From Candidatus Falkowbacteria bacterium (GTDB taxonomy: Bacteria > Patescibacteriota > Patescibacteriia > XYB2-FULL-38-15): 64,000 nt of DNA. The stretch is from assembly GCA_037440105.1 (NCBI GenBank), contig JBBIUS010000001.1, positions 28,945 to 92,944 on the forward strand, read 5' to 3'. Below the pieces are notes generated by a model. That model was given only the letters and a program-made list of their open reading frames with translations, searched no databases and was not told where the DNA came from. Within the stretch, counting starts at the first letter, position 1. The number at the start of each line of letters is the position of its first letter. The position numbers and the translations under genes are program-made. Below are positions 9,224 to 63,736 of this stretch, piece by piece.

Positions 9224-10574
9224 AAAAACACCTTCTATTGCGATTGTCGGCAGAGCTAATGTAGGAAAATCTACCCTTTTTAACTGTTTGATTGAAAAAC
9301 CAAAAGCTTTGGTTTCCCCTATAGCTGGGACAACAAGGGATAGAAATTATGGCCACGCCATCTGGCGCGGCCAAGATTTAATTTTGGTTGACACCGGCGG
9401 CTTAGAAGACATCGCTATTGGAAAAATTATAGCCAGAGAAGTTAAAAAGCAAGTTGATATTGCTGTAGCAAAAGCGGATTTAATATTCTTTTTAGTTGAT
9501 TTAAAAGCCGGGCTTCTCCCAGACGATATAAAAATTTCTAAATTTTTAAAAAAATTGAAAAAACCAGTAATTTTAGTCGGCAATAAAGCAGACAACGCCG
9601 TCCTCCAAATAAAGGCAGAAGAGAAACAATGGCTTAGACTGAATTTTGGAAAACCGTTGCCGGTTTCGGCAGTAACCGGAGCCGGCGCAGGAGACCTCCT
9701 TGACCAAGCCACGGCTATTTTAAAAACGATTGAGATAAAAAAAACACCGCCTACCATCTCACGCCCGCCAATAAAAGTTGCGATTATCGGCAAACCAAAT
9801 GTTGGCAAGTCTTCTTTACTAAATTCGCTTTTGGGCGAAGAAAGAGTTTTGGTTAGCGAAATTCCTTTTACCACCCGCGAACCGCAAGACACATTGTTTA
9901 TATATAAAGATCAGCCGCTTCTTTTAATTGACACAGTCGGCATCAGAAAAAAAGCCAAGATAAAACCGGGTTTAGAAAAAATGGGTGTTAAAAGAAGCAT
10001 CGCAGCTATTGAACGTTCAGACATTGTTCTTTTTGTTACCGAAACGCAAGAACCGCTCACAGCCCAAGATAAACATTTGGCTGAATTAATTTTAAAAACA
10101 AATGCCAGTTTGATTATCCTGGCTAATAAATGGGATCTTGTTTCGCAAAAAGAATCTGCCACCATAAACAGATTCACATTGTACTATCGCCGTTTTTTCC
10201 CATTTCTTGACTGGGCGCCGATTTTATTCATTTCAGCCAAAACCGGAGAAAAAGTAAAAAAAATTTTAGATTTAATTTTAGAAATAAATAAAGAACGAAA
10301 TAAACTTTTAAAGCCAGAAGAATTAGAAAAATTTTTAAAAATAACTCTTGTCAAACACTGGGCTATTGTTCACCGCAAAAAGAAAATCAGCGAAAGACCA
10401 AAAATTATTGATTTAACACAAACTGCGACTGCTCCGCCAAAATTCCAATTAATCACCACATCTAAAGAAGCCATTCCAGATGCTTTTATAAAATTTATTG
10501 AAAAAAGATTGCGCGAACAGTTTGACTTTCTCGGCACGCCGATTAAGGTCGAAGTAAGACAGATTAAAAAATAG
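9207..10574 (+). CDS. der: Ribosome-associated GTPase Der/EngA
   Basis: Two G domains (GRANVGKST..DTGG..NKAD and GKPNVGKSS..DTVG..NKWD) plus a KH-like C-terminus. The start is moved to ATG 9207 (GGAG upstream); the ORF-track start at 9180 overlaps the LCP gene. Confidence 0.93.
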   Translation: MPIISKKTPSIAIVGRANVGKSTLFNCLIEKPKALVSPIAGTTRDRNYGHAIWRGQDLILVDTGGLEDIAIGKIIAREVKKQVDIAVAKADLIFFLVDLKAGLLPDDIKISKFLKKLKKPVILVGNKADNAVLQIKAEEKQWLRLNFGKPLPVSAVTGAGAGDLLDQATAILKTIEIKKTPPTISRPPIKVAIIGKPNVGKSSLLNSLLGEERVLVSEIPFTTREPQDTLFIYKDQPLLLIDTVGIRKKAKIKPGLEKMGVKRSIAAIERSDIVLFVTETQEPLTAQDKHLAELILKTNASLIILANKWDLVSQKESATINRFTLYYRRFFPFLDWAPILFISAKTGEKVKKILDLILEINKERNKLLKPEELEKFLKITLVKHWAIVHRKKKISERPKIIDLTQTATAPPKFQLITTSKEAIPDAFIKFIEKRLREQFDFLGTPIKVEVRQIKK

Positions 10575-10656
10575 GGTTGAGCAAGGTTTAGCAGGGTTCG
10601 GCAGGGGTTAAATCCCTTGCTATACTATGCTAATCCCTGCTACACCCTGCTATACC
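10574..10656. repeat. Word-hairpin spacer, family C (GCAAGG/GCAGGG vs CCTTGC/CCCTGC words), intergenic copy
   Basis: gggttgagcaaggtttagcagggttcggcagggg / ttaaat / cccttgctatactatgctaatccctgctacaccctgctatacc. Confidence 0.7.
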
Positions 10657-10664
10657 ATACAAAC

Positions 10665-11240
10665 ATGCGACTCATCGCCGGTCTCGGAAATCCAGGAAAA
10701 AAATATGAAAAAACGCGACATAATGCCGGTTTTTTAACTATTAACTATTTACAATTAACAATTAACAATTTTTCTGATTGGAAGTTTAATAAAAAATTCA
10801 ATGCTGAAATAGCAGAAGGAACAATAAATGATGAAAAAATTATTCTAGCAAAACCGCAAACATTTATGAACGATTCGGGCCAGGCTGTTAAAAAAATAAT
10901 CGGAAATCGGAAATTGGAAATTGGAAATTTAATTGTCATTCACGACGACATCGACCTTCCGCTCGGGAAAATCAGAATAAAAAAAGACGGCTCTTCCGGC
11001 GGCCATCAAGGCGTGCAGTCTATTATCACCGCGCTTGGCACACAAAATTTTGTTCGTTTGAAAATCGGTGTTGGACCGAAAACACGGCCGCCGCATTTTG
11101 ACGCGGCAAAGTACGTTTTGCAAAAATTTACCAAAAGCGAAGAAAAAATTCTAGCCGAGACAATAAAAAAAGCAACCGATGCGGTTGCCGTGATCCTGGA
11201 AGAAAGTGTGGAAAAAGCGATGAACCAGTTCAATCGATAG
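10665..11240 (+). CDS. pth: Peptidyl-tRNA hydrolase
   Basis: MRLIAGLGNPGKKYEKTRHNAGF, FMNDSG, IHDDIDLPLGKIR, GGHQGV. The start is set at ATG 10665; the longer ORF-track N-terminus is encoded by repeat C. Confidence 0.93.
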   Translation: MRLIAGLGNPGKKYEKTRHNAGFLTINYLQLTINNFSDWKFNKKFNAEIAEGTINDEKIILAKPQTFMNDSGQAVKKIIGNRKLEIGNLIVIHDDIDLPLGKIRIKKDGSSGGHQGVQSIITALGTQNFVRLKIGVGPKTRPPHFDAAKYVLQKFTKSEEKILAETIKKATDAVAVILEESVEKAMNQFNR

Positions 11241-11637
11241 AGTTTCTCAGTTTCTCAATTTTTCAGTTTATTGGTTTTTAAGTTTGTATTTTTGGTTTTT
11301 GGTTTTTAATTTTTGGTTTATGCCCATATCACTGCCCGCCAGCGTAAAGTCCGTTCCGAAAACGGAAAAAACTTTAACTTGTGGTTACTTACTAGGTCAG
11401 GAGGGGTGACCATCGTTTTCACCGCTGGCGAGCAGAGGCACGAACACAATCGTTGTTTTCTTAATACTACATCTTAACAAATTTAATTATCATCGTCAAG
11501 AATAATTTTCTCGGATGCCCGACTCCTAACTTCTTTTGACATTTAATCTATTAGAAATAGAAATTTGACATCAGGTGTTGTATTGCTTTATTCGCACCTT
11601 AATTTATTTCTTTTATCTTGATAACTTCTCTAAAAGT

Positions 11638-12738
11638 ATGGCAACTCAAAATGGTTTAAAATATTGGATAGCTTTTTCTCGGTTTCCTAAAATTGGCTCA
11701 GTAAGGCTTTTAAAACTTTTAAATTATTTCTCTTCAATGGAAGAAGCCTGGCAGGCTTCTTCCATTGATTTAATTAAAGCTGGTCTGGAAGAAAACGTAA
11801 TCCAGGAATTTTTTATCAAAAAGCAAGAAATTAATCCGGACCGAGAGTTAGAAGAATTAAAAAAAGAAAACATTAAAGTTGTCACAATAAAAGATGAAAA
11901 CTACCCCTCCCTACTCAAAGAAATTTGGAATCCGCCAGCCCTTCTTTATTATAAAGGGACTTTAGAAAAAGAAGAAAAATTTTCCATTGCCATAGTTGGG
12001 ACTCGAAAAATTACAAATTACGGCAAGCAAGTTACAGAAGACCTAGTGCGAGAACTCGCTTTAAATGGAATTACAATTGTAAGCGGTATGGCTTTGGGTA
12101 TTGATACAGTCGCCCATCAAACAGCTCTTGCCTCTGGTGCAAAAACAATCGCTGTTTTGGGCTCTGGTATTGATACAGCAAGTATTTACCCTTCTCAAAA
12201 TCGATATTTAGCTTCAAAAATCGCTGAAAATGGAGGAGCTATTATTTCAGAATATCCAATTGGCACTCTTGCCATGCCTCAATATTTCCCTCACCGCAAC
12301 AGAATCATTTCTGGGCTTTCACTTGGGACTTTAGTCGTTGAAGCAGCAGAAGAATCAGGCGCTTTAATTACCGCTAAATACGCCCTTGACCAAAACCGCG
12401 AAGTTTTTGCCGTTCCAGGCAGCATCTATAGCCCTGCCTCAATTGGTCCAAATAATTTAATAAAAATGGGAGCCAAACCGGTGACAAAAGCGACTGATAT
12501 TTTAGAAACTTTAAATCTTACTCAAGTAACAAATTTTATTCAATCTCAAAAAATTGTTCCAGAAAGCCAAGAAGAAGCAAAACTTCTACAATTTCTTTCT
12601 TTTGAGCCTGTCCATATTGACAAACTCATTGCCCTTTCAGGACTTGACGTCCAAAAAACAAATAGTACACTTACGATTATGGAAATGAAAGGGAAAGTAA
12701 AGAATCTTGGAGGGATGAACTATGTGCTAGCGAAGTAA
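11638..12738 (+). CDS. dprA: DNA-processing protein DprA
   Basis: VGTRKITNYG, SGMALGIDTVAHQ, GSGID, FPHRNRIISGLS, VVEAAEESGALITA, VFAVPG, C-terminal wHTH. Start ATG 11638. Confidence 0.92.
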   Translation: MATQNGLKYWIAFSRFPKIGSVRLLKLLNYFSSMEEAWQASSIDLIKAGLEENVIQEFFIKKQEINPDRELEELKKENIKVVTIKDENYPSLLKEIWNPPALLYYKGTLEKEEKFSIAIVGTRKITNYGKQVTEDLVRELALNGITIVSGMALGIDTVAHQTALASGAKTIAVLGSGIDTASIYPSQNRYLASKIAENGGAIISEYPIGTLAMPQYFPHRNRIISGLSLGTLVVEAAEESGALITAKYALDQNREVFAVPGSIYSPASIGPNNLIKMGAKPVTKATDILETLNLTQVTNFIQSQKIVPESQEEAKLLQFLSFEPVHIDKLIALSGLDVQKTNSTLTIMEMKGKVKNLGGMNYVLAK

Positions 12739-12808
12739 CCAGTAACGGGTAACGAGTAACGCGTACAATTTTAAAATTACGGGTTACTGGTTACGGGTTA
12801 CGCGTTAC
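12735..12808. repeat. Word-hairpin spacer, family B (GTAACG / CGTTAC words), copy 1
   Basis: gtaaccagtaacgggtaacgagtaacgcgtac / aattttaaaatta / cgggttactggttacgggttacgcgttac. The dprA stop TAA (12736-12738) lies in the first word. Confidence 0.75.
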
Positions 12809-12815
12809 TATATTT

Positions 12816-15122
12816 ATGAACCTCGTTATCGTCGAATCCCCTACAAAAGCAAAAACAATTTCAAAATTTTTAACAAAAGACTTTAAGGTTGAGTCTTCTT
12901 TTGGCCATGTCCGTGACCTGCCGGAGTATGAGATGGGGATTGATATTGAACATGATTTTAAGCCGCATTATGTCGTCCCGCGCAAAAATCAAAAAATCGT
13001 AAACAACCTTAAAAAAGCGTCTCAAAAAGCAAAAAATGTTTATTTTGCCACTGACGAAGACAGAGAGGGCGAAGCAATTGCCTGGCACCTTGCTCAAATT
13101 TTAAAACCAAAAGCAGAGCAAATCAAACGAATCGCCTTTCATGAGATCACGCGCGAAGCAGTCCTTGAAGCAATAAAAAATCCGCGCTCTATTGATTTAA
13201 ATTTAGTCAATGCTCAGCAAGCAAGGCGGATTTTGGATCGCTTGGTTGGTTATGAACTTTCCCCTTTTCTCTGGCGAAAAGTTGCTAAAGGCCTTTCAGC
13301 AGGGCGCGTTCAATCAGTGGCCGTCCGATTGATTGTCGAAAGGGAAAGAGAAATCCAAAATTTTAAACCGCAGGAATATTGGACTATTGAAGCAAGGTTA
13401 AGCAAGGTTAGGCAAGGAATGGCAAGGAGTAGCAATGGTGAAAAAACAACCCTGCTCAACCCCGCTAAACCCTACTCAACCCCACTAAACTCTGATACAT
13501 TCATTGCCAAGCTTTATAAAATTGATGGCGCGGTTTTGGATAAATTTGATATTGCCACCAAAGAAAAAGCAGAAAGAATTCTCAAGGACCTCGAGGGCCG
13601 AAGTTATACAGTAGTTGATGTCCAAAAAAAAGAAAAAAAGAGGACGCCATTGCCTCCTTTCACAACCTCTACTCTGCAGCAAGAAGCAAACCGTCAATTT
13701 GGCTTTTCTGCCAAGCAAACAATGGTAATTGCCCAACAGTTGTATGAAGGAATAAATCTCGGTCCAGAAGGTTCAATTGGCTTAATTACTTATATGCGAA
13801 CTGATTCAGTCAATCTGGCAGAAAAGTTTTTAAACGAAACGCGCAAGTTTATTTCGGTGTCCTTCGGCGATAAATATTTGCCCGCATCTAGTCGGCGTTT
13901 TGCCACAAAATCAAAATTAGCTCAAGAAGCCCATGAAGCAATCCGGCCAACCGATCCAAATCGAAAACCGGACGATATCAAACAACACTTAGACGATAGT
14001 CAATATAAACTTTATAATTTAATTTGGCAGCGGGCTATTGCTTCTCAAATGGCAGAAGCTTTGCTCATTAGCACAACTGCAGATATTGAAGCAAAAAAAA
14101 TGGAAATCAGTAATCAAAAATCTAAAATATCCTCCTATATTTTTCGAACCACCGGCTTAACAATTAAATTCGACGGCTTTTTAAAAGTTTACGGTTCAAG
14201 CCAGGAATTAATCCTCCCACCGCTCGAGGTCAATGAACCGTTGGACTTAATCAAATTAACTCCTATCCAACACTTTACTCAACCGCCAGCCAGGTATTCT
14301 GACGCATCACTAGTTAAGGCGCTTGAAGAACACGGCATTGGCCGCCCGTCAACCTACGCACCGACTATTTCAAATATTATTGAACGTGGCTATGTTGAAA
14401 GAATCGAAGGCCGCCGCCTGAAGCCAAAAGAAATTGCTTTTTTAGTAAACGATCTTTTAGTCCAGCACTTCCCGCAGATCGTTGACTATAAATTCACGGC
14501 TCGAATGGAGGACGATTTAGACGAAATTGCTCAAAGAAAAAAAGAATGGGTTCCAATAATTCGAGAATTTTATATTCCCTTTAAGGAAAATCTTAATAAA
14601 AAATATCAAGAAATCAGCAAAAAAGAACTTACTGAAGAAAAAACAGAAGAGATTTGCGAAAAATGCGGCGCTCCAATGGTTATAAAAACTGGACGCTACG
14701 GAAAGTTTTTAGCCTGCAGCGCTTTCCCAAAATGCAAAAATGTCAAACCGCTCGAAAAACCCACACCATCTGAGGCAGAAACCACTGACGAAAAATGCGA
14801 AAAATGCGGCGCTCCAATGGTTATAAAAACTGGACGCTACGGAAAGTTTTTAGCCTGCTCAAAATATCCGGAATGTAAAAATGTTAAACCGCTTATAAAA
14901 TCAACCGGGCTAACCTGCCCTCAGTGCGGCAAGGGAGAAATAGTTGAACGCCGTTCAAAACGCGGCCGCACCTTTTATTCCTGCAGCCGATACCCTAACT
15001 GCAAATTTGCCCTTTGGTCGCGCCCAACCGGCGAAAAATGCCCAAAATGCAATAGCCTTTTGGTCCACGGAAAAAAAGACATGGTTGTTTGTTCAAATAA
15101 AGAATGTGATTATAAAGAGTAA
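12816..15122 (+). CDS. topA: DNA topoisomerase I
   Basis: TOPRIM (LVIVESPTKAKTI, DEDREGEAIAWH), catalytic Tyr region TYMRTDS, four C-terminal Cys4 zinc ribbons. Confidence 0.96.
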   Translation: MNLVIVESPTKAKTISKFLTKDFKVESSFGHVRDLPEYEMGIDIEHDFKPHYVVPRKNQKIVNNLKKASQKAKNVYFATDEDREGEAIAWHLAQILKPKAEQIKRIAFHEITREAVLEAIKNPRSIDLNLVNAQQARRILDRLVGYELSPFLWRKVAKGLSAGRVQSVAVRLIVEREREIQNFKPQEYWTIEARLSKVRQGMARSSNGEKTTLLNPAKPYSTPLNSDTFIAKLYKIDGAVLDKFDIATKEKAERILKDLEGRSYTVVDVQKKEKKRTPLPPFTTSTLQQEANRQFGFSAKQTMVIAQQLYEGINLGPEGSIGLITYMRTDSVNLAEKFLNETRKFISVSFGDKYLPASSRRFATKSKLAQEAHEAIRPTDPNRKPDDIKQHLDDSQYKLYNLIWQRAIASQMAEALLISTTADIEAKKMEISNQKSKISSYIFRTTGLTIKFDGFLKVYGSSQELILPPLEVNEPLDLIKLTPIQHFTQPPARYSDASLVKALEEHGIGRPSTYAPTISNIIERGYVERIEGRRLKPKEIAFLVNDLLVQHFPQIVDYKFTARMEDDLDEIAQRKKEWVPIIREFYIPFKENLNKKYQEISKKELTEEKTEEICEKCGAPMVIKTGRYGKFLACSAFPKCKNVKPLEKPTPSEAETTDEKCEKCGAPMVIKTGRYGKFLACSKYPECKNVKPLIKSTGLTCPQCGKGEIVERRSKRGRTFYSCSRYPNCKFALWSRPTGEKCPKCNSLLVHGKKDMVVCSNKECDYKE
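13391..13490. repeat. Family-C-like word-hairpin element lying in frame inside topA
   Basis: agcaaggttaagcaaggttaggcaaggaatggcaaggagtagc ... ccctgctcaaccccgctaaaccctactcaaccccactaaac. It encodes ARLSKVRQGMARSSNGEKTTLLNPAKPYSTPLN. Confidence 0.65.
14655..14858 (+). repeat. Tandem duplication (141-nt period) of a topA zinc-ribbon module; 63 nt are identical
   Basis: tgcgaaaaatgcggcgctccaatggttataaaaactggacgctacggaaagtttttagcctgc occurs at 14655-14717 and again at 14796-14858. Confidence 0.9.
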
Positions 15123-15158
15123 AAACGCTGTACATCACTGTTACATGTTATAAAATGA

Positions 15159-15190
15159 CTGCCTCGCATCTTTGCGTAAGGCAGTTTTTA
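15159..15190 (+). terminator. Intrinsic terminator after topA
   Basis: ctgcctcgca-tctt-tgcgtaaggcag followed by TTTTT. Confidence 0.7.
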
Positions 15191-15327
15191 AAAATAATCG
15201 CATTTTAAAAAGTTGGACAATTATGCTATGGCATTTTGTACACTTTTTATTTTAACATTATTATTCATCGCAATTGATTCTTAAATTCTTTACAAAATAC
15301 CTTATTTGTTTTACACTTTTTAAGTGT

Positions 15328-16848
15328 ATGACAATCGACGAACTGCTTCAAAAAATCAAGTCTTACAATCCAAACGCTGATTTAGATTTAATCAGGTTGG
15401 CCTATGAATACGCTAAAAAAGCACACGGCGCCCAAAAGAGACTTTCTGGGAAACCATACATCGCTCACCCTCTAGCAACAGCTTTTAATCTGGCGGAAAT
15501 GAAATTAGATCAAGATGTTATTATTGCCGGACTTTTGCATGATGTTCCAGAAGAGACAAGCCCTCAAAATCCTGAATTGTCATTAAAAGATATCAAGCAC
15601 AACTTTGGCGAAGAGGTGGCTTTTTTAGTCCGCGGCATTACCAAACTCGGCAAGATTAAATACCGCGGTATGGAGCGCTACCTTGAAAACCTTCGTAAAA
15701 TGTTTATTGCCATGGCTGAGGACATTAGAGTAATTCTAATAAAATTTGCCGACCGGCTGCATAACCTTGAAACTTTAGAATTTTTACCGCCCAAAAAACA
15801 AAAACGCATTGCCCTTGAAACGCTTGAAATTTATGCTCCGATTGCCAACCGCTTAGGCATGGGAGAAATTAAAGGACGCCTTGAAGATGAATCTTTCAAG
15901 TATCTCTATCCAAAAGAATATGAATGGCTAAAAAAAGAAGTAACGCCAAAATATAAAGAAAAAGAAGAGTATTTAAAAAAAATAAAAGTAAAACTTTTAA
16001 AAACAATCACTCGGTCTCCTTTGGGCTACGACCTTTCAAGTCAGCCTCTTTCAAATGAAGGGTCAAGGGGAATAAAAATATATTCAATCCATGGTCGGAC
16101 AAAACGTCTTTGGAGCATTTACAAAAAATTAAAACAGCGCGGGAATAAGGATCTATCAAAAATTTATGATCTAGTCGCTCTTCGCGTTATTACTGAAACA
16201 GTTGCTGAATGCTACGCGATTTTAGGAATTATTCATCAACTCTGGAAACCGCTCAAAGGGAGAATTAAAGACTATATTGCTCAACCAAAACCAAATGGCT
16301 ATCAATCACTGCATACTACTGTCTTCTGCGATGACGGAGAAATTATTGAATTCCAAATCAGAACAAAAAAAATGCACGAAAAAGCAGAATACGGTATCGC
16401 CGCCCATTGGTATTACGAAGAACGCGGCTCAACAAAACCGGTAGATAAAAATTTAAAATGGGTAAACGAACTAACCAAATGGAAAAAAGAATTTGAAGAA
16501 AATAGACAATACCTCGAAACATTAAAAATTGATGTTTTTCAAAACAGGATATTTGTTTTTACCCCAAAAGGCGATGTCATTGACCTGCCGGAAAACTCAA
16601 CAGCCATTGATTTTGCTTATGCAGTACATACTGATCTCGGCAATAAATGTGTTGGCGCCAAAATTAACGATCAAATGGCCAGTTTAGACACAAAACTTTT
16701 AAACGGGGACATGGTTGAAATTTTGACTGACAAAAACCGAAAAGCGCCGTCTGTTGACTGGCTAAAATTTGCTAAAACAAGCAACGCTCGCCACAAAATA
16801 AGAAGTTGTCTTAGGAAATCAAAAATACAAATCGGCAATAAAAAATGA
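15328..16848 (+). CDS. RelA/SpoT homolog (HD hydrolase + synthetase + TGS; no ACT/RRM domain)
   Basis: HPLATA, LLHDVPEET, RTKRLWSIYKK, YDLVALRVI, YIAQPKPNGYQSLHTTV, EFQIRT, VFTPKGDVIDLP. Start ATG 15328. Confidence 0.93.
   Translation: MTIDELLQKIKSYNPNADLDLIRLAYEYAKKAHGAQKRLSGKPYIAHPLATAFNLAEMKLDQDVIIAGLLHDVPEETSPQNPELSLKDIKHNFGEEVAFLVRGITKLGKIKYRGMERYLENLRKMFIAMAEDIRVILIKFADRLHNLETLEFLPPKKQKRIALETLEIYAPIANRLGMGEIKGRLEDESFKYLYPKEYEWLKKEVTPKYKEKEEYLKKIKVKLLKTITRSPLGYDLSSQPLSNEGSRGIKIYSIHGRTKRLWSIYKKLKQRGNKDLSKIYDLVALRVITETVAECYAILGIIHQLWKPLKGRIKDYIAQPKPNGYQSLHTTVFCDDGEIIEFQIRTKKMHEKAEYGIAAHWYYEERGSTKPVDKNLKWVNELTKWKKEFEENRQYLETLKIDVFQNRIFVFTPKGDVIDLPENSTAIDFAYAVHTDLGNKCVGAKINDQMASLDTKLLNGDMVEILTDKNRKAPSVDWLKFAKTSNARHKIRSCLRKSKIQIGNKK
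16011..16072. repeat. GC-richer imperfect palindrome lying in frame inside the RelA/SpoT gene
   Basis: GACCTTTCA (16030-16038) pairs with TGAAGGGTC (16056-16064) over 9 bp including one G-U. It encodes TRSPLGYDLSSQPLSNEGSRG, at a spot where homologs I recall have only a short linker. Confidence 0.5.
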
Positions 16849-61240: not shown

Positions 61241-63736
61241 TATATTTATCAACCTCCCCTTTACAAAAATAACCTTCTTAATTTCCTTACCCTCAATCCA
61301 TTTTTTAACCTTCTTGCTCTCCATTGCAACTTTTTTCGCTTCCTCTTCGCTAATATCTGCTTTTACTCTAATTGTATCCCTCAACTTACCATTCACTTGC
61401 ACTACTAAATCAATTTCTTCTTCCGCAATCAATAACGGGTCATAAACCGGCCATTTTTCCAAAATAATACTTCCCTTGCGCCCTAATTTTTCCCACAGCT
61501 CTTCAGCAATATGCGGCGCAAAAGGTGAAAGAAGTTTTAAAAATGTTTCAAACTGCCCTATTGTAAATGCCTGCACACTCATTTCATTGGCTAAAATCAT
61601 CAAGGCAGAAATCGCAGTATTAAATTTAAAATTTTCAATGTCTTCTGTGACTTTCTTAATGGTCTTATGAAGCAGTCTATCTAATTTTGAATTTTTAATT
61701 GTAGTTTTTAATTTCTCTAATCCCCAAACACGCTCCAAGAATCTTCTCACACCAACAATCCCCTTCGTGCTCCAGGGTTTTACATCTTCAAAAGGTCCCA
61801 TAAACATTTCATAGAGCCTCATTGTGTCTGCACCATAAGTTTTAATCACGTCATCAGGATTAATAACGTTACCTCGCGACTTTGACATTTTTTGCCCATC
61901 TTCGCCTAAAATGATTCCTTGATTTCTTAATTTTATGAACGGCTCTTTAGTTGATACCAAACCTTCGTCATGCAAAACTTTATGCCAAAAACGAGCGTAA
62001 AGAAGGTGAAGCACAGCGTGCTCTGCTCCGCCAACATAGAAATCAACCGGCATCCAATATTTTTCTTTTTTCTTATCAAAAATTTCTTTCTTGTTTTTTG
62101 AGTCAAGATAGCGCAGATAATACCAGCACGAGCCAGCCCATTGCGGCATGGTGTTTGTCTCGCGTTTTGCTGGTCCGCCACAAGCAGGGCACTTTGTATT
62201 TACCCATTTTGAAATGGCCGCGAGAGGTGATTCACCTGTGCCAGTTGGTTTATATTCTTTAATATCGGGCAACCTCACTGGCAAATCTTTTTCCGGCACT
62301 GGCACCCAACCACACTTATCACATTTTGCAAGCGGAATGGGTTCGCCCCAATATCTTTGTCTTGAAAAAACCCAGTCACGCAGTTTATAATTTACTGCCT
62401 TTTTCGCTAATCCTTTTTTTGCCAGCCGTTCAGTAATTTTTTCTCTTGCTTCACTGCTCGACATGCCATTAAATTGACCAGAGTTAATTAAAATTCCTTC
62501 TCCTTCGTACGCCTTCTCTAATTCTAAATCTTTAATTTTTAATTTGTGTTTTTGGTTTTTGGTTTTTGGTTTTTGATTTTGTTCTGCCGGCTGTATAACT
62601 TCCACTACTGGCAAGCCATACTTTACAGCAAAATCGTAGTCTCTTTGATCATGAGCTGGAACAGCCATAATTGCACCTGTACCATAGTGGGGTAAAACAT
62701 AATCCGCAACCCAAATCGGAATTTCCGAACCATTGACTGGATTTACTGCTTTAATACCTTTCAGCTCTACGCCAGTTTTTTCTTTTGTTAATTCCGCTCT
62801 TTCCAAATCACTTTTCTCTTTTGCTTGTTCCACATACTTTTTCACTTCTTCTAAATTCTTAATTCTAGATTCTAGATTCTGCAATATGGGGTGTTCCGGC
62901 GCCACAACCATATAAGTCGCACCAAAAAGTGTGTCAGGCCGAGTGGTGAACACTTCCAGAATTGTCATCCCCGACTTGAGCCCCGTTTTCACGAGGCCGG
63001 ATCCAGTTTTCTGGATTCCCGCTTCCGCGGGAATGACATTAAAACGCACTAGCGCCCCCTCTGATCTTCCAATCCAATTCCTCTGCATTTCTTTAATCTG
63101 CTCCGGCCAATCCAAATCTTTTAAATCTTCTAACAATCTATCCGCATAAGCCGTGATTTTTAGCATCCACTGCCTCATGTCTTTTTTTGTCACTTTTGTT
63201 TTGCATCGCTCGCATTTGCCGTCCACCACTTCTTCATTTGCCAAGCCAGTTTTGCAGGAGGGACACCAATTGATTGGCACTACCGCTTCATATGCCAAAC
63301 CTCGTTTGAATAATTTCAAAAAAATCCACTGAGTCCATTTGTAATAATTTGGATCAGTGGTATTAACTTCGCGCGACCAGTCATAAGAAAAACCCAAACT
63401 TTTTATTTGTTGCCTTATTCTTTTAATATTTTTAGCGGTACTTATAGCCGGATGAACACCGGTTTTAATGGCATAATTCTCTGCTGGTAAACCAAAAGCG
63501 TCAAAACCCATTGGGTGTAAGACATTCCACCCTTCCATCCGCCGTTTTCTGGCAATAATATCAGTGGCTGTGTATCCTTCAGGGTGTCCAACATGTAGTC
63601 CTTCAGCAGATGGATAAGGAAACATATCTAAGACATAAAACTTTCTCTTTTTTGGGTCTTCTTTAACTTCAAAAAGTTTTTCCCGCTCCCAGTACCCCTG
63701 CCACTTTTTCTCTATAATTTTATGATTATAAGTCAT
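61223..63736 (-). CDS. leuS: Leucine--tRNA ligase
   Basis: HVGHPEGY (HIGH), CP1 editing domain ([20 protein letters not shown]), KMSKS, 837 aa. Confidence 0.97.
62964..63037. mobile_element. 74-nt GC-rich palindromic (MITE/REP-like) element inside leuS, read through in frame
   Basis: Terminal inverted repeats GTCATCCCCGAC / GCGGGAATGAC. Internal hairpins ttcccgc-ggaa-gcgggaa, ccag-aaaa-ctgg, cctcg-tgaaaa-cgggg. It encodes [23 protein letters not shown]. Confidence 0.6.

Follow-up and report, generated by a model that had tools for sequence, protein, structure and literature searches.

How does a tract with the layout of an intergenic hairpin come to lie, in frame, within a topoisomerase gene? 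This question is raised by topA (type IA DNA topoisomerase I, 768 aa; 12816-15122, + strand), a gene in the window, by which we mean the entire 64,000-nt stretch of Candidatus Falkowbacteria DNA analyzed here. Its reading frame runs through a 100-nt tract of two word-built arms (13391-13490), which the initial annotation had compared with the palindromic elements of Rickettsia. Based upon the evidence below, it is very probable that the tract is a family element tolerated in frame. As for its identity, we consider it likely that the tract is one copy of a hairpin element akin to the ORF-bearing rRNA intervening sequences, tolerated and translated in its host gene, and that it probably spread laterally.

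The topA tract and its position in the enzyme

The host gene is present as a single copy, being the sole topA match in the window's own genome (G000), and its product matches TopA entries of the PDB at E values of 1e-154 to 1e-121. The tract lies 192 codons into topA, is translated in the gene's frame as ARLSKVRQGMARSSNGEKTTLLNPAKPYSTPLN and leaves the ORF intact. Its left arm (13391-13436, + strand) consists of 4.6 tandem 10-nt words, AGCAAGGTTA, AGCAAGGTTA, GGCAAGGAAT, GGCAAGGAGT and AGCAAT, translated as ARLSKVRQGMARSSN. The right arm (13450-13490, + strand) holds four complementary words, CCCTGCTCAA, CCCCGCTAAA, CCCTACTCAA and CCCCACTAAA, with a final C, and is translated as TLLNPAKPYSTPLN. 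Between them lies GGTGAAAAAACAA (13437-13449, + strand; translated GEKT), which forms the loop of the antisense hairpin in the minimum-free-energy structure of the minus strand and corresponds to GCTGAAGAAACAA in the orthologue of a second genome, L031. In both arms, Tandem Repeats Finder detects arrays with a period of 10, and because the unit measures 10 nt, the reading frame rotates from word to word. Thus, the sequence, the repeat finder and the ORF all agree with the two-arm, in-frame tract that had been proposed. When the flanks of all four family copies described below were inspected, we saw no target-site duplication, no common or defined termini and no discrete terminal inverted repeats.

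Relative to its orthologues, this TopA carries a clear insertion, as had been supposed. Between the conserved IE and F.AKL segments there are 36 residues here vs 11 in same-family relatives, and the range at this point is 11-15 residues among the TopA of 40 relatives and the closest database homologues. The net gain is about 25 codons (75 nt), even though the element spans 100 nt. In database TopA, insertion size was judged by the distance between two flanking anchors in the 120 best of 8000 scored proteins; this distance is 94 residues here, whereas it is mostly 67-71 in those 120 matches, and none of them proved to be a further insert-bearing TopA.

The initial annotation had expected a surface loop of domain II/III, and the AlphaFold2 model (mean pLDDT 83.5) accords well with this expectation. 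Residues 201-225 are modeled with pLDDT <50 between strands 187-197 and 228-236, placing the extra residues in a predicted disordered loop at the tip of a β-hairpin on the TopA surface. In an alignment to E. coli TopA, the insert falls between residues 228 and 250, a region that we take to belong to domain II. The same TopA loop carries different repeats in other lineages.

A small family of word hairpins and its PF05635-bearing relatives

In this genome of 956 kb, the tract is one of four members of a sequence family, located at der/pth, topA, uvrB/uvrA and KH-protein/trmD; two of the four are within the window. The sister copy in the window (10574-10656, + strand) is built from the same family of 10-nt words, lies exactly in the gap that separates the stop codon of der from the start codon of pth and folds at -41.9 kcal/mol (z -5.25). 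Its word similarity to the topA tract, claimed at the outset, is well founded: the local alignment score of 50 was reached by 0 of 1000 dinucleotide shuffles (mean 15.3, sd 2.4, maximum 29). Scores between family copies in general range from 35 to 113 vs shuffle maxima of 26-31. Likewise, these four loci are the only ones in the genome where GC[AG][AG]GG words recur every 10 nt and then give way to the complementary words, and the six-word clusters found at both window loci were never reached in block-shuffled genomes. By blastn, the topA left arm has 88% identity over 43 nt to the uvrB/uvrA copy on contig C28. To call the family locally abundant is an overstatement, given four copies per genome. 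The word family is absent from the genomes of 40 relatives.

What sets the topA copy apart is its location. The other three family copies each occupy the space from one gene's stop codon to the next co-directional start codon, as do most of the 68 word-hairpin loci that we counted in the genome. Nearly all of the 68 are at junctions of co-directional genes, and the topA copy is the only one deep within a long ORF. It is open in one of six frames, whereas none of the six is free of stops in any intergenic family copy. When the frame that is open in topA is applied to the uvrB/uvrA copy, it provides UvrB with a C-terminal tail, TRLSKDKHGMARISKGINRAQP, which ends at the stop codon; the TopA counterpart is ARLSKVRQGMARSSNG, and the two peptides have RLSK...GMAR.S.G in common. 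Alignments with the UvrB of relatives end at about residue 695 of 715. Further in-frame word hairpins are found in UvrB and UvrC of this genome.

PF05635 is a family of small genes for a four-helix bundle, and intervening sequences of 23S rRNA were the place of its first discovery. In L031, the very word family of the topA insert brackets a PF05635 gene (137 aa; gene at 11628-12041, arms at 11563-11612 and 11994-12070 of that genome's sequence) located immediately after topA. The window's own genome has 14 PF05635 matches at 13 loci, of which 7 have complementary word arrays on both flanks according to the repeat listing and 10 have joined flanks that fold as a stem; these cassettes are built on other words than the topA insert. 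The topA element type belongs with the word hairpins that bracket PF05635 ("23S rRNA intervening sequence protein") genes. A transposase-bearing parent of the element was not found in the genome. As candidates for a cognate transposase, whether an IS parent or a RAYT as in REP-RAYT systems, contigs C6 and C14 have two weak matches to PF01797 (Y1 transposase; 29 and 26 bits, one including a stop codon), both of them away from the family copies.

Folding is confined to the antisense strand

The hairpin described in the initial annotation turns out to be a property of one strand. Antisense RNA of the tract folds at -45.6 kcal/mol (z -4.84) into a long imperfect hairpin (13394-13489, - strand) with 26 Watson-Crick and 9 G.U pairs, which is the only significant fold; the topA mRNA strand does not fold beyond expectation (-21.5 kcal/mol, z +0.40), and DNA folding is not significant on either strand. 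Accordingly, both a sense-strand hairpin and a DNA-level hairpin were rejected on these fold statistics. Since every between-arm transition mismatch on the sense strand is an A.C mismatch, the topA message is left without a long stem.

We considered whether this asymmetry reflects selection against folding of the mRNA and rejected the idea, as the polarity is no different in the PF05635-bearing family member of L031 (0 G.U pairs sense, 11 antisense) and as the frame is open on one strand only. With polarity forced by the open frame, extra selection is unnecessary as an explanation. With G.U vs A.C counts of 10 to 2-3, the tract stands out only modestly from the 68 loci, and the notion that the mRNA must not fold is further weakened by the internal in-frame hairpin of UvrB, which folds on both strands (-42.3 kcal/mol sense, -48.6 antisense). 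A genome-wide tendency for the better-folding strand to track the direction of transcription was similarly rejected from the junction splits: the plus strand folds better, equally or worse than the minus strand at 8, 8 and 8 plus-strand junctions and at 11, 10 and 9 minus-strand junctions, respectively. Rfam returned nothing relevant among known RNA families in 10000-16000, and a search adjoining the element yielded no convincing antisense promoter or terminator.

A second carrier and the age of the insert

The distant genome L031 (Der 44% identical) and L032, which are two independent assemblies (one an NCBI genome and the other from Logan) of another organism, have this insert too, in the same position and with the same length and word number. 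With the window's genome, this makes two known carriers. Close relatives and diverse TopA sequences do not generally share a homologous segment of this length; it was encountered only in this one distant TopA, where it is the same repetitive element. The exact 23-base pattern of the right arm is absent from GTDB species genomes and JGI metagenome contigs.

When the two orthologues are compared, the insert and its host gene tell different stories. DNA identity to L031 is 83% in the insert vs 68% in the rest of topA, and pS is 0.144 vs 0.76, while pN is nearly the same in both (0.18 and 0.20), yielding pN/pS of ~1.25 in the insert vs ~0.26 in the gene. The 35 codons of the insert contain 14.5 non-synonymous changes, while residues that are unchanged keep their codon; where an amino acid is shared, the codon is shared as well in 21/22 cases in the insert vs 224/473 elsewhere (Fisher p = 3e-6). 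Nowhere in the gene is the DNA more conserved against L031 than in the right arm, which has 91% nucleotide identity and zero synonymous differences over 15 codons (a 30-nt segment, 13446-13475, is 93% identical); the left arm is 75% identical.

Phylogeny is also discordant. When the insert columns are left out of the TopA tree, the window TopA pairs with that of L036 (support 99), and the sister of the L031 TopA is that of L035 (support 98); neither of these sisters has the insert, and forcing both carriers into a single clade is rejected (delta lnL 80.7, p-AU 0.005). The closer relatives L036, L037, L034 and L035 all lack the insert, and the neighboring genes are 44-58% identical to those of L031 vs 67-78% to those of the insert-free L036, L037 and L034. 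The immediate flanks of the insert have identities to L031 of 0.82 upstream and 0.72 downstream vs 0.78 and 0.69 to the sister L036, and no recombination tract is detectable in them. Taken together, the evidence tips toward an insert that is young or laterally acquired rather than ancient. The low synonymous divergence could alternatively result from selection on DNA or RNA, or from homogenization against other family copies; the left arm resembles the C28 copy no less closely than it does its own orthologue (88% over 43 nt vs 75%).

The alternative that survives best, albeit an unlikely one, is an ancient vertical insertion that preceded the split of the carriers and was maintained by selection on the nucleic acid, in which case the antisense hairpin or the word array (for example, as a binding site of the PF05635 protein) would be functional. 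Such a scenario would account for the conserved synonymous sites within the insert as well as for the strong antisense hairpins kept in both orthologues (-45.6 and -49.4 kcal/mol, 9 G.U pairs each) despite 17% divergence. However, these hairpins are in different registers, and 6 of the 10 changed pairs break the structure of the other orthologue; covariation between them is likewise uninformative, as each folds in a register of its own. At least four losses on the tree would be required in addition to very strong constraint. Palindromes are deletion-prone, which makes repeated loss plausible, but the near equality of pN and pS inside the insert resembles the neutral drift of a young sequence. 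A function of the antisense strand also sits poorly with the want of a convincing antisense promoter and with a better-folding strand that is unrelated to gene strand across the genome. The distribution of the family likewise speaks against this scenario: at der/pth, the one orthologous junction that could be checked, the copy found in the window is absent in L031, the dprA/topA junction has a different word in each of the two genomes, and the 40 relatives lack the family altogether.

Other origins and roles

Rather than arriving from elsewhere, the tract might have arisen in place, with native codons slipping into tandem words and template switching then copying one arm to the other. We regard this as improbable. 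It would fit the net gain of 75 nt from a 100-nt span, the different repeats that occupy this loop in other lineages, the match of the hairpin loop GGTGAAAAA to native GGT GAA AAA at the same place in L002, and the loose resemblance of the outermost residues (EARL.., ..S.PLN..F) to the native loop of L035. The nucleotide match to the L035 loop, however, is ~44% by a manual position-by-position count, near chance for this composition, and GGTGAAAAA is absent at this place in the closest relatives (L036, L037, L034 and L035). The same 10-nt word, spacing and two-arm layout recur at three other loci of this genome and around the L031 PF05635 gene.

It is still harder to credit an adaptive loop, in which the basic, serine- and proline-rich insert alters TopA function, for example through a DNA or partner contact of domain II. 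The peptide of the left arm is indeed basic, and the insert has been kept in frame in two lineages and in the sole topA copy, but the insert's excess of pN over pS contrasts with the constraint on the rest of the gene, the segment is predicted to be disordered, closer relatives manage without it and the same peptide frame serves as an accidental tail on UvrB. An assembly artefact or chimeric join is scarcely credible, even for a draft metagenome-assembled genome of 85 contigs with 6% estimated contamination, since the ORF is intact and in frame and since two assemblies of another organism, one at NCBI and one made independently in Logan, have the insert at this site and of this length.

Discussion

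Having weighed these alternatives, we return to the tolerated family element and its probable history. The tract would be a copy, without a gene of its own, of a hairpin element in which 10-nt words form two arms as inverted arrays. Such word hairpins normally reside exactly at co-directional gene junctions in this genome, and larger versions hold a PF05635 gene in the loop. One copy presumably came into topA in its only stop-free frame of six, at the tip of a surface β-hairpin, and would now be transcribed and translated within TopA as ~25 residues of disordered loop, which the enzyme probably tolerates and from which TopA probably draws no benefit. Lacking a sense stem, the message may be spared stem-directed cleavage and ribosome stalling. 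The insert would have a single origin that is younger than the split of the two carrier genomes, and its movement between lineages would most likely have occurred by recombination via the conserved flanks EYWTIE and AKLYKI or else by site-directed insertion. Nearly unsaturated synonymous sites in an otherwise saturated gene would then represent a rare and datable trace of either a very short lateral transfer or a site-directed insertion. From a practical standpoint, inserts of this kind are a source of inflated and distorted alignments when marker proteins are taken from metagenome-assembled genomes.

Among known systems, the ORF-bearing 23S rRNA intervening sequences of Leptospira and Coxiella, with their S23p/PF05635 gene, share the long stem of inverted arms that optionally encloses a PF05635 gene, the existence of gene-less and gene-bearing forms and a patchy distribution in which distant lineages are affected at one and the same site. 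The differences are that the host here is a protein-coding gene, that the element is predicted to be translated rather than excised and that its sense stem is disabled, so that the sense strand does not form the structure that RNase III would cut out of a transcript; whereas elements of this type otherwise mostly occupy the gap from a stop codon to the next co-directional start codon, the topA copy lies within an ORF. The parallel links the word hairpins of operon junctions with the PF05635 "intervening sequence protein" gene family. One could go further and propose that PF05635/intervening sequence-type word hairpins are mobile between distant ultra-small bacteria, insert or are recombined site-specifically into protein genes and persist there as translated loops, their spread being driven by a PF05635 protein that recognizes its own 10-nt arrays. 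While this larger proposal is doubtful at present, it would, if true, provide a protein-gene counterpart of rRNA intervening sequences as well as a general source of loops in CPR/Patescibacteria proteins.

Other repeat classes offer more limited parallels. Bacterial MITEs, such as ERIC, BOX and others, can also be inserted in frame (PMC10969869), and the tract resembles them as a short, non-autonomous hairpin repeat able to fuse with host ORFs; unlike MITEs, it displays neither a target-site duplication nor discrete terminal inverted repeats, and no transposase-bearing parent came to light, the only Y1 transposase matches being weak and located elsewhere. The tandem repeats of Borgs are in-frame repeats that create disordered regions (PMC9879509), which is a similar conversion of repeat DNA into a disordered protein segment, but the present element differs in its frame-rotating 10-nt unit, its inverted-complement arms and the same copy number in both carriers. 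An in-frame microsatellite or VNTR was rejected on account of the 10-nt unit and the identical length and word number in both carriers.

The closest parallel in behavior is that drawn in the initial annotation. Rickettsia palindromic elements are dispersed palindromes that lie in frame in unrelated housekeeping genes without destroying them (PMC10969869). The topA tract is similarly part of a dispersed palindromic family, occupies a predicted fold-compatible surface position in an intact gene, uses one translated frame in common with a different host (RLSK...GMAR in TopA and UvrB) and belongs to a type of insert that recurs within the genome (TopA, UvrB and UvrC). However, its host is an unrelated, tiny-genome, Patescibacteria-like organism, its arms are tandem 10-nt words instead of a unique 100-150-bp consensus, and it has four copies, an unfolded mRNA strand, a larger PF05635-bearing relative and an insert common to two distant genomes. 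We liken the tract to these elements by its behavior, as distinct from a comparison with their RPE-1 to RPE-10 consensus sequences, and do not classify it among them. Our limited literature search found no paper on word hairpins or in-frame palindromic inserts in Patescibacteria. In-frame palindromic colonization of essential genes, so far a hallmark of Rickettsia, would thus extend to free-standing ultra-small bacteria, where a different kind of element has affected at least TopA, UvrB and UvrC.

Results

The tract at 13391-13490 (+ strand) lies in frame inside topA (12816-15122, + strand; 768 codons), an ORF whose matches among solved structures of bacterial topoisomerase I have E values of 1e-154 to 1e-121 and which is the single topA of this 956-kb, 85-contig genome. 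The tract consists of five AGCAAGGTTA-type words and, after the spacer GGTGAAAAAACAA, four CCCTGCTCAA / CCCCGCTAAA-type words, with a G+C content of 48% versus 41% for topA. Both the sequence itself and the period-10 arrays reported by Tandem Repeats Finder in the left and right arms agree with the two-arm word layout claimed in the initial annotation, and the extra residues it recognized relative to other TopA proteins are equally evident. Among the TopA sequences of 29 relatives, 11 residues separate "..IE" from "F.AKL" in same-family members versus 36 in the window TopA, and codon alignment yields a net gain of 75 nt (25 codons). Across the best 120 hits from a 5.8-billion-protein collection, the flanking anchors lie 67-71 residues apart in 83, versus 94 in the window TopA. 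Residues 196-245 face residues 229-249 of E. coli TopA (4RUL), a region that we take to be the start of domain II. The insert also maps to a loop, as had been anticipated: in an AlphaFold2 model (mean pLDDT 83.5), residues 201-225 have pLDDT below 50 and sit between strands 187-197 and 228-236, which suggests that the extra residues make a floppy tip on a beta-hairpin.

This loop, which follows EYW.IE, is evidently permissive and appears to be a target of repeated hits. A Kuenenbacteria TopA (L033) fills it with direct heptamer repeats (QQLTINNQQLTINN), relative G033 (L005) with a perfect GC hairpin of 9 bp (TCTCCCCCTAAAAAGGGGGAGA), L034 with a small hairpin of 7 bp, L036 with AT-rich words and relative G015 (L013) with a 40-residue insert. 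The hairpin loop of the window element, GGTGAAAAA (13437-13445), is identical to the GGT GAA AAA (G E K) that relative L002 has natively in this position and similar to GGT AAA GAA AAA of other same-family relatives, while the closest relatives lack it; the match to native codons may be a coincidence or a remnant of an ancestral loop.

According to blastn and a word census, the architecture, in which GC[AG][AG]GG words recur at 10-nt intervals and their complements come next, is limited to four loci of this genome: the der/pth junction (10574-10656), topA (13391-13490), the interval between uvrB and uvrA (C28:4463-4557), and that between a KH-domain protein gene and trmD (C5:24195-24265). Contrary to what had been proposed, the word family is therefore not locally abundant, and it was not found in the genomes of 40/40 relatives, nor was its right-arm pattern found in GTDB species genomes or JGI metagenome contigs. 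The proposed kinship with the der/pth hairpin is upheld, since local alignment to the topA copy scores 50 for der/pth, 80 for C28, 35 for C5 and 113 for the orthologous insert of a distant carrier (L031), all above the shuffle maxima of 26-31 (means about 15-16).

As a hairpin, the topA tract qualifies on one strand only. The antisense RNA folds strongly (-45.6 kcal/mol, z -4.84), with a stem of 26 Watson-Crick and 9 G.U pairs, whereas the mRNA strand does not (-21.5 kcal/mol, z +0.40); as DNA, the - strand gives -11.7 kcal/mol (z -0.66) and the + strand -9.7 kcal/mol (z 0.04). In an ungapped arm-to-arm comparison, transition mismatches on the minus strand are G.U 10 times and A.C 2-3 times. 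Selection against message structure is a disfavored cause of this asymmetry, as three results fit a simpler one: a gene-bearing L031 family member of equal polarity has 0 G.U in sense and 11 in antisense, the topA copy is open in 1/6 frames with stops in 3/3 complementary frames, and either strand of an in-frame hairpin inside UvrB folds (-42.3 and -48.6 kcal/mol). Genome-wide, no relation was found between the better-folding strand of word-hairpin loci and gene direction.

In total, 68 word-hairpin loci emerged when Tandem Repeats Finder arrays were matched by complementary units, mostly of 7-nt words and nearly all within a few bases of a co-directional gene boundary; the topA copy is the sole locus of this census deep in a long ORF. 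Another scan, done without gaps, together with comparison to homologues, located two further in-frame hairpins inside conserved enzymes outside the window, both on the minus strand. UvrB residues about 434-462 (C28:5242-5344) are an in-frame hairpin of CACGAA / TTCGTG words, translated as HKTKNHEYEHEKPRNISGASCYPSWSLASSK and missing from five relatives (G001, G002, G004, G005 and G013). UvrC residues about 324-348 (C28:about 676-752) are an in-frame hairpin of ATGAATT / AATTCAT heptamers, translated as ..RIRNYESRTRELKNHNSYFIIRDSK.. and missing from G001, G002, G004 and G005; UvrC of G006 may contain a similarly long segment in this position. Furthermore, the C-terminal ~20 residues of UvrB, TRLSKDKHGMARISKGINRAQP*, are encoded by the uvrB/uvrA family copy (C28:4490-4557, outside the window) in the identical frame of the word family used by the TopA insert, and alignments of relatives' UvrB stop at residue 694-696 of 715, about 20 residues short of the end. 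Together, the TopA, UvrB and UvrC cases argue that translated word-hairpins are a recurring feature of this genome.

Several other repeats were encountered in the window. The pth frame contains heptamer runs of TTAACAA x5.3 (10734-10770) and AATTGGA x4.6 (10898-10929), which by our own reading encode ..FLTINYLQLTINNF.., and their AACAATT word also builds the Kuenenbacteria loop insert. The dprA/topA junction (12734-12808) carries a heptamer word-hairpin, AGTAACG x4.6 / TTACGGG x4.6, while that of L031 has another word, AAAATTC x6.9, indicating that junction hairpins turn over between genomes. In leuS, both strands of a GC-rich palindromic tract (62964-63037) fold (-31.3 and -40.2 kcal/mol).

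Among the best 120 hits, one other TopA, P0002 (GCA_030694215.1, locus L031), bears the insert, and an independent Logan contig (L032) contains it as well. The P0002 insert, ARLSKDEQGVVGISKAEETTLLNPDKPCSTPINPDIF, equals that of the window TopA in length, site and frame. Between the two genes, nucleotide identity is 83% in the insert versus 68% elsewhere, pS is 0.144 versus 0.76 (saturated), pN is 0.18 versus 0.20, and identical codons at unchanged residues number 21/22 versus 224/473 (Fisher p = 3e-6); the right arm has 0 synonymous changes in 15 codons. Protein identity between the two loci is 44% for Der, 46% for LytR, 54% for DprA and 58% for RelA/SpoT, while the insert-free L036, L037 and L034 share 67-78% identity with the window in DprA and RelA/SpoT. 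A maximum-likelihood TopA tree, with insert columns left out, places the window with L036 (support 99) and L031 with L035 (support 98), and constraining both carriers to one clade costs 80.7 log-likelihood units (p-AU 0.005).

Directly after topA, L031 also encodes a 137-aa protein of PF05635, the "23S rRNA intervening sequence protein" family (23S_rRNA_IVP), flanked by two arms that belong to the 10-nt word family of the topA tract (11563-11612 and 11994-12070). The final three codons of topA, plus its stop, fall within the left arm, and the arms pair better in antisense (-66.4 versus -45.2 kcal/mol). The window's genome has 14 PF05635 matches (e.g., C5:5978-6289, C1:21407-21721, C19:9464-9772 and C35:883-1198). 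Of the 13 taken into flank analysis, 7 show complementary tandem-word arrays on both flanks among the repeats listed, with a different word per locus, and joined flanks form a stem at 10.

Discussion

The shared loop sequence and word order argue that the window and L031 inserts have a single origin, and, on the most economical view, the insert arose long after its hosts diverged. It would then have passed from one carrier lineage to the other, or to both from a third source, possibly by recombination through the conserved flanks (17/18 identical on the left; 15 identical bases shared on the right). No recombination tract is discernible in these flanks, whose shortness and conservation would mask one; site-directed insertion is an alternative route. 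An ancient insertion, a less probable alternative, would instead entail at least four losses and strong DNA or RNA constraint; in its favor is the strong antisense hairpin kept in both orthologues, though in differing registers. The left arm of the topA copy is also equally close to the C28 copy of its own genome and to the L031 orthologue, which hints at homogenization among copies.

These comparisons support the view that the tract is a predicted-translated, tolerated copy of a word-hairpin element, kin to PF05635/IVS-type cassettes. Three aspects are new: an ultra-small bacterium whose core genes harbor this word-hairpin element type, survival of copies apparently filtered by one frame in six, and one insert common to the window and a distant genome, against phylogeny.

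The initial annotation envisaged an in-frame, intergenic-type element resembling Rickettsia palindromic elements; its insertion, family and behavior stand, with the corrections that the mRNA strand does not fold and that the family is not locally abundant. In Rickettsia, translated in-frame palindromic inserts recur within a genome (PMC10969869), and the same is true of the predicted-translated word-hairpins in TopA, UvrB and UvrC here. By this analogy, the evidence supports a tract that acts like a Rickettsia palindromic element, yet is not assigned to that family.
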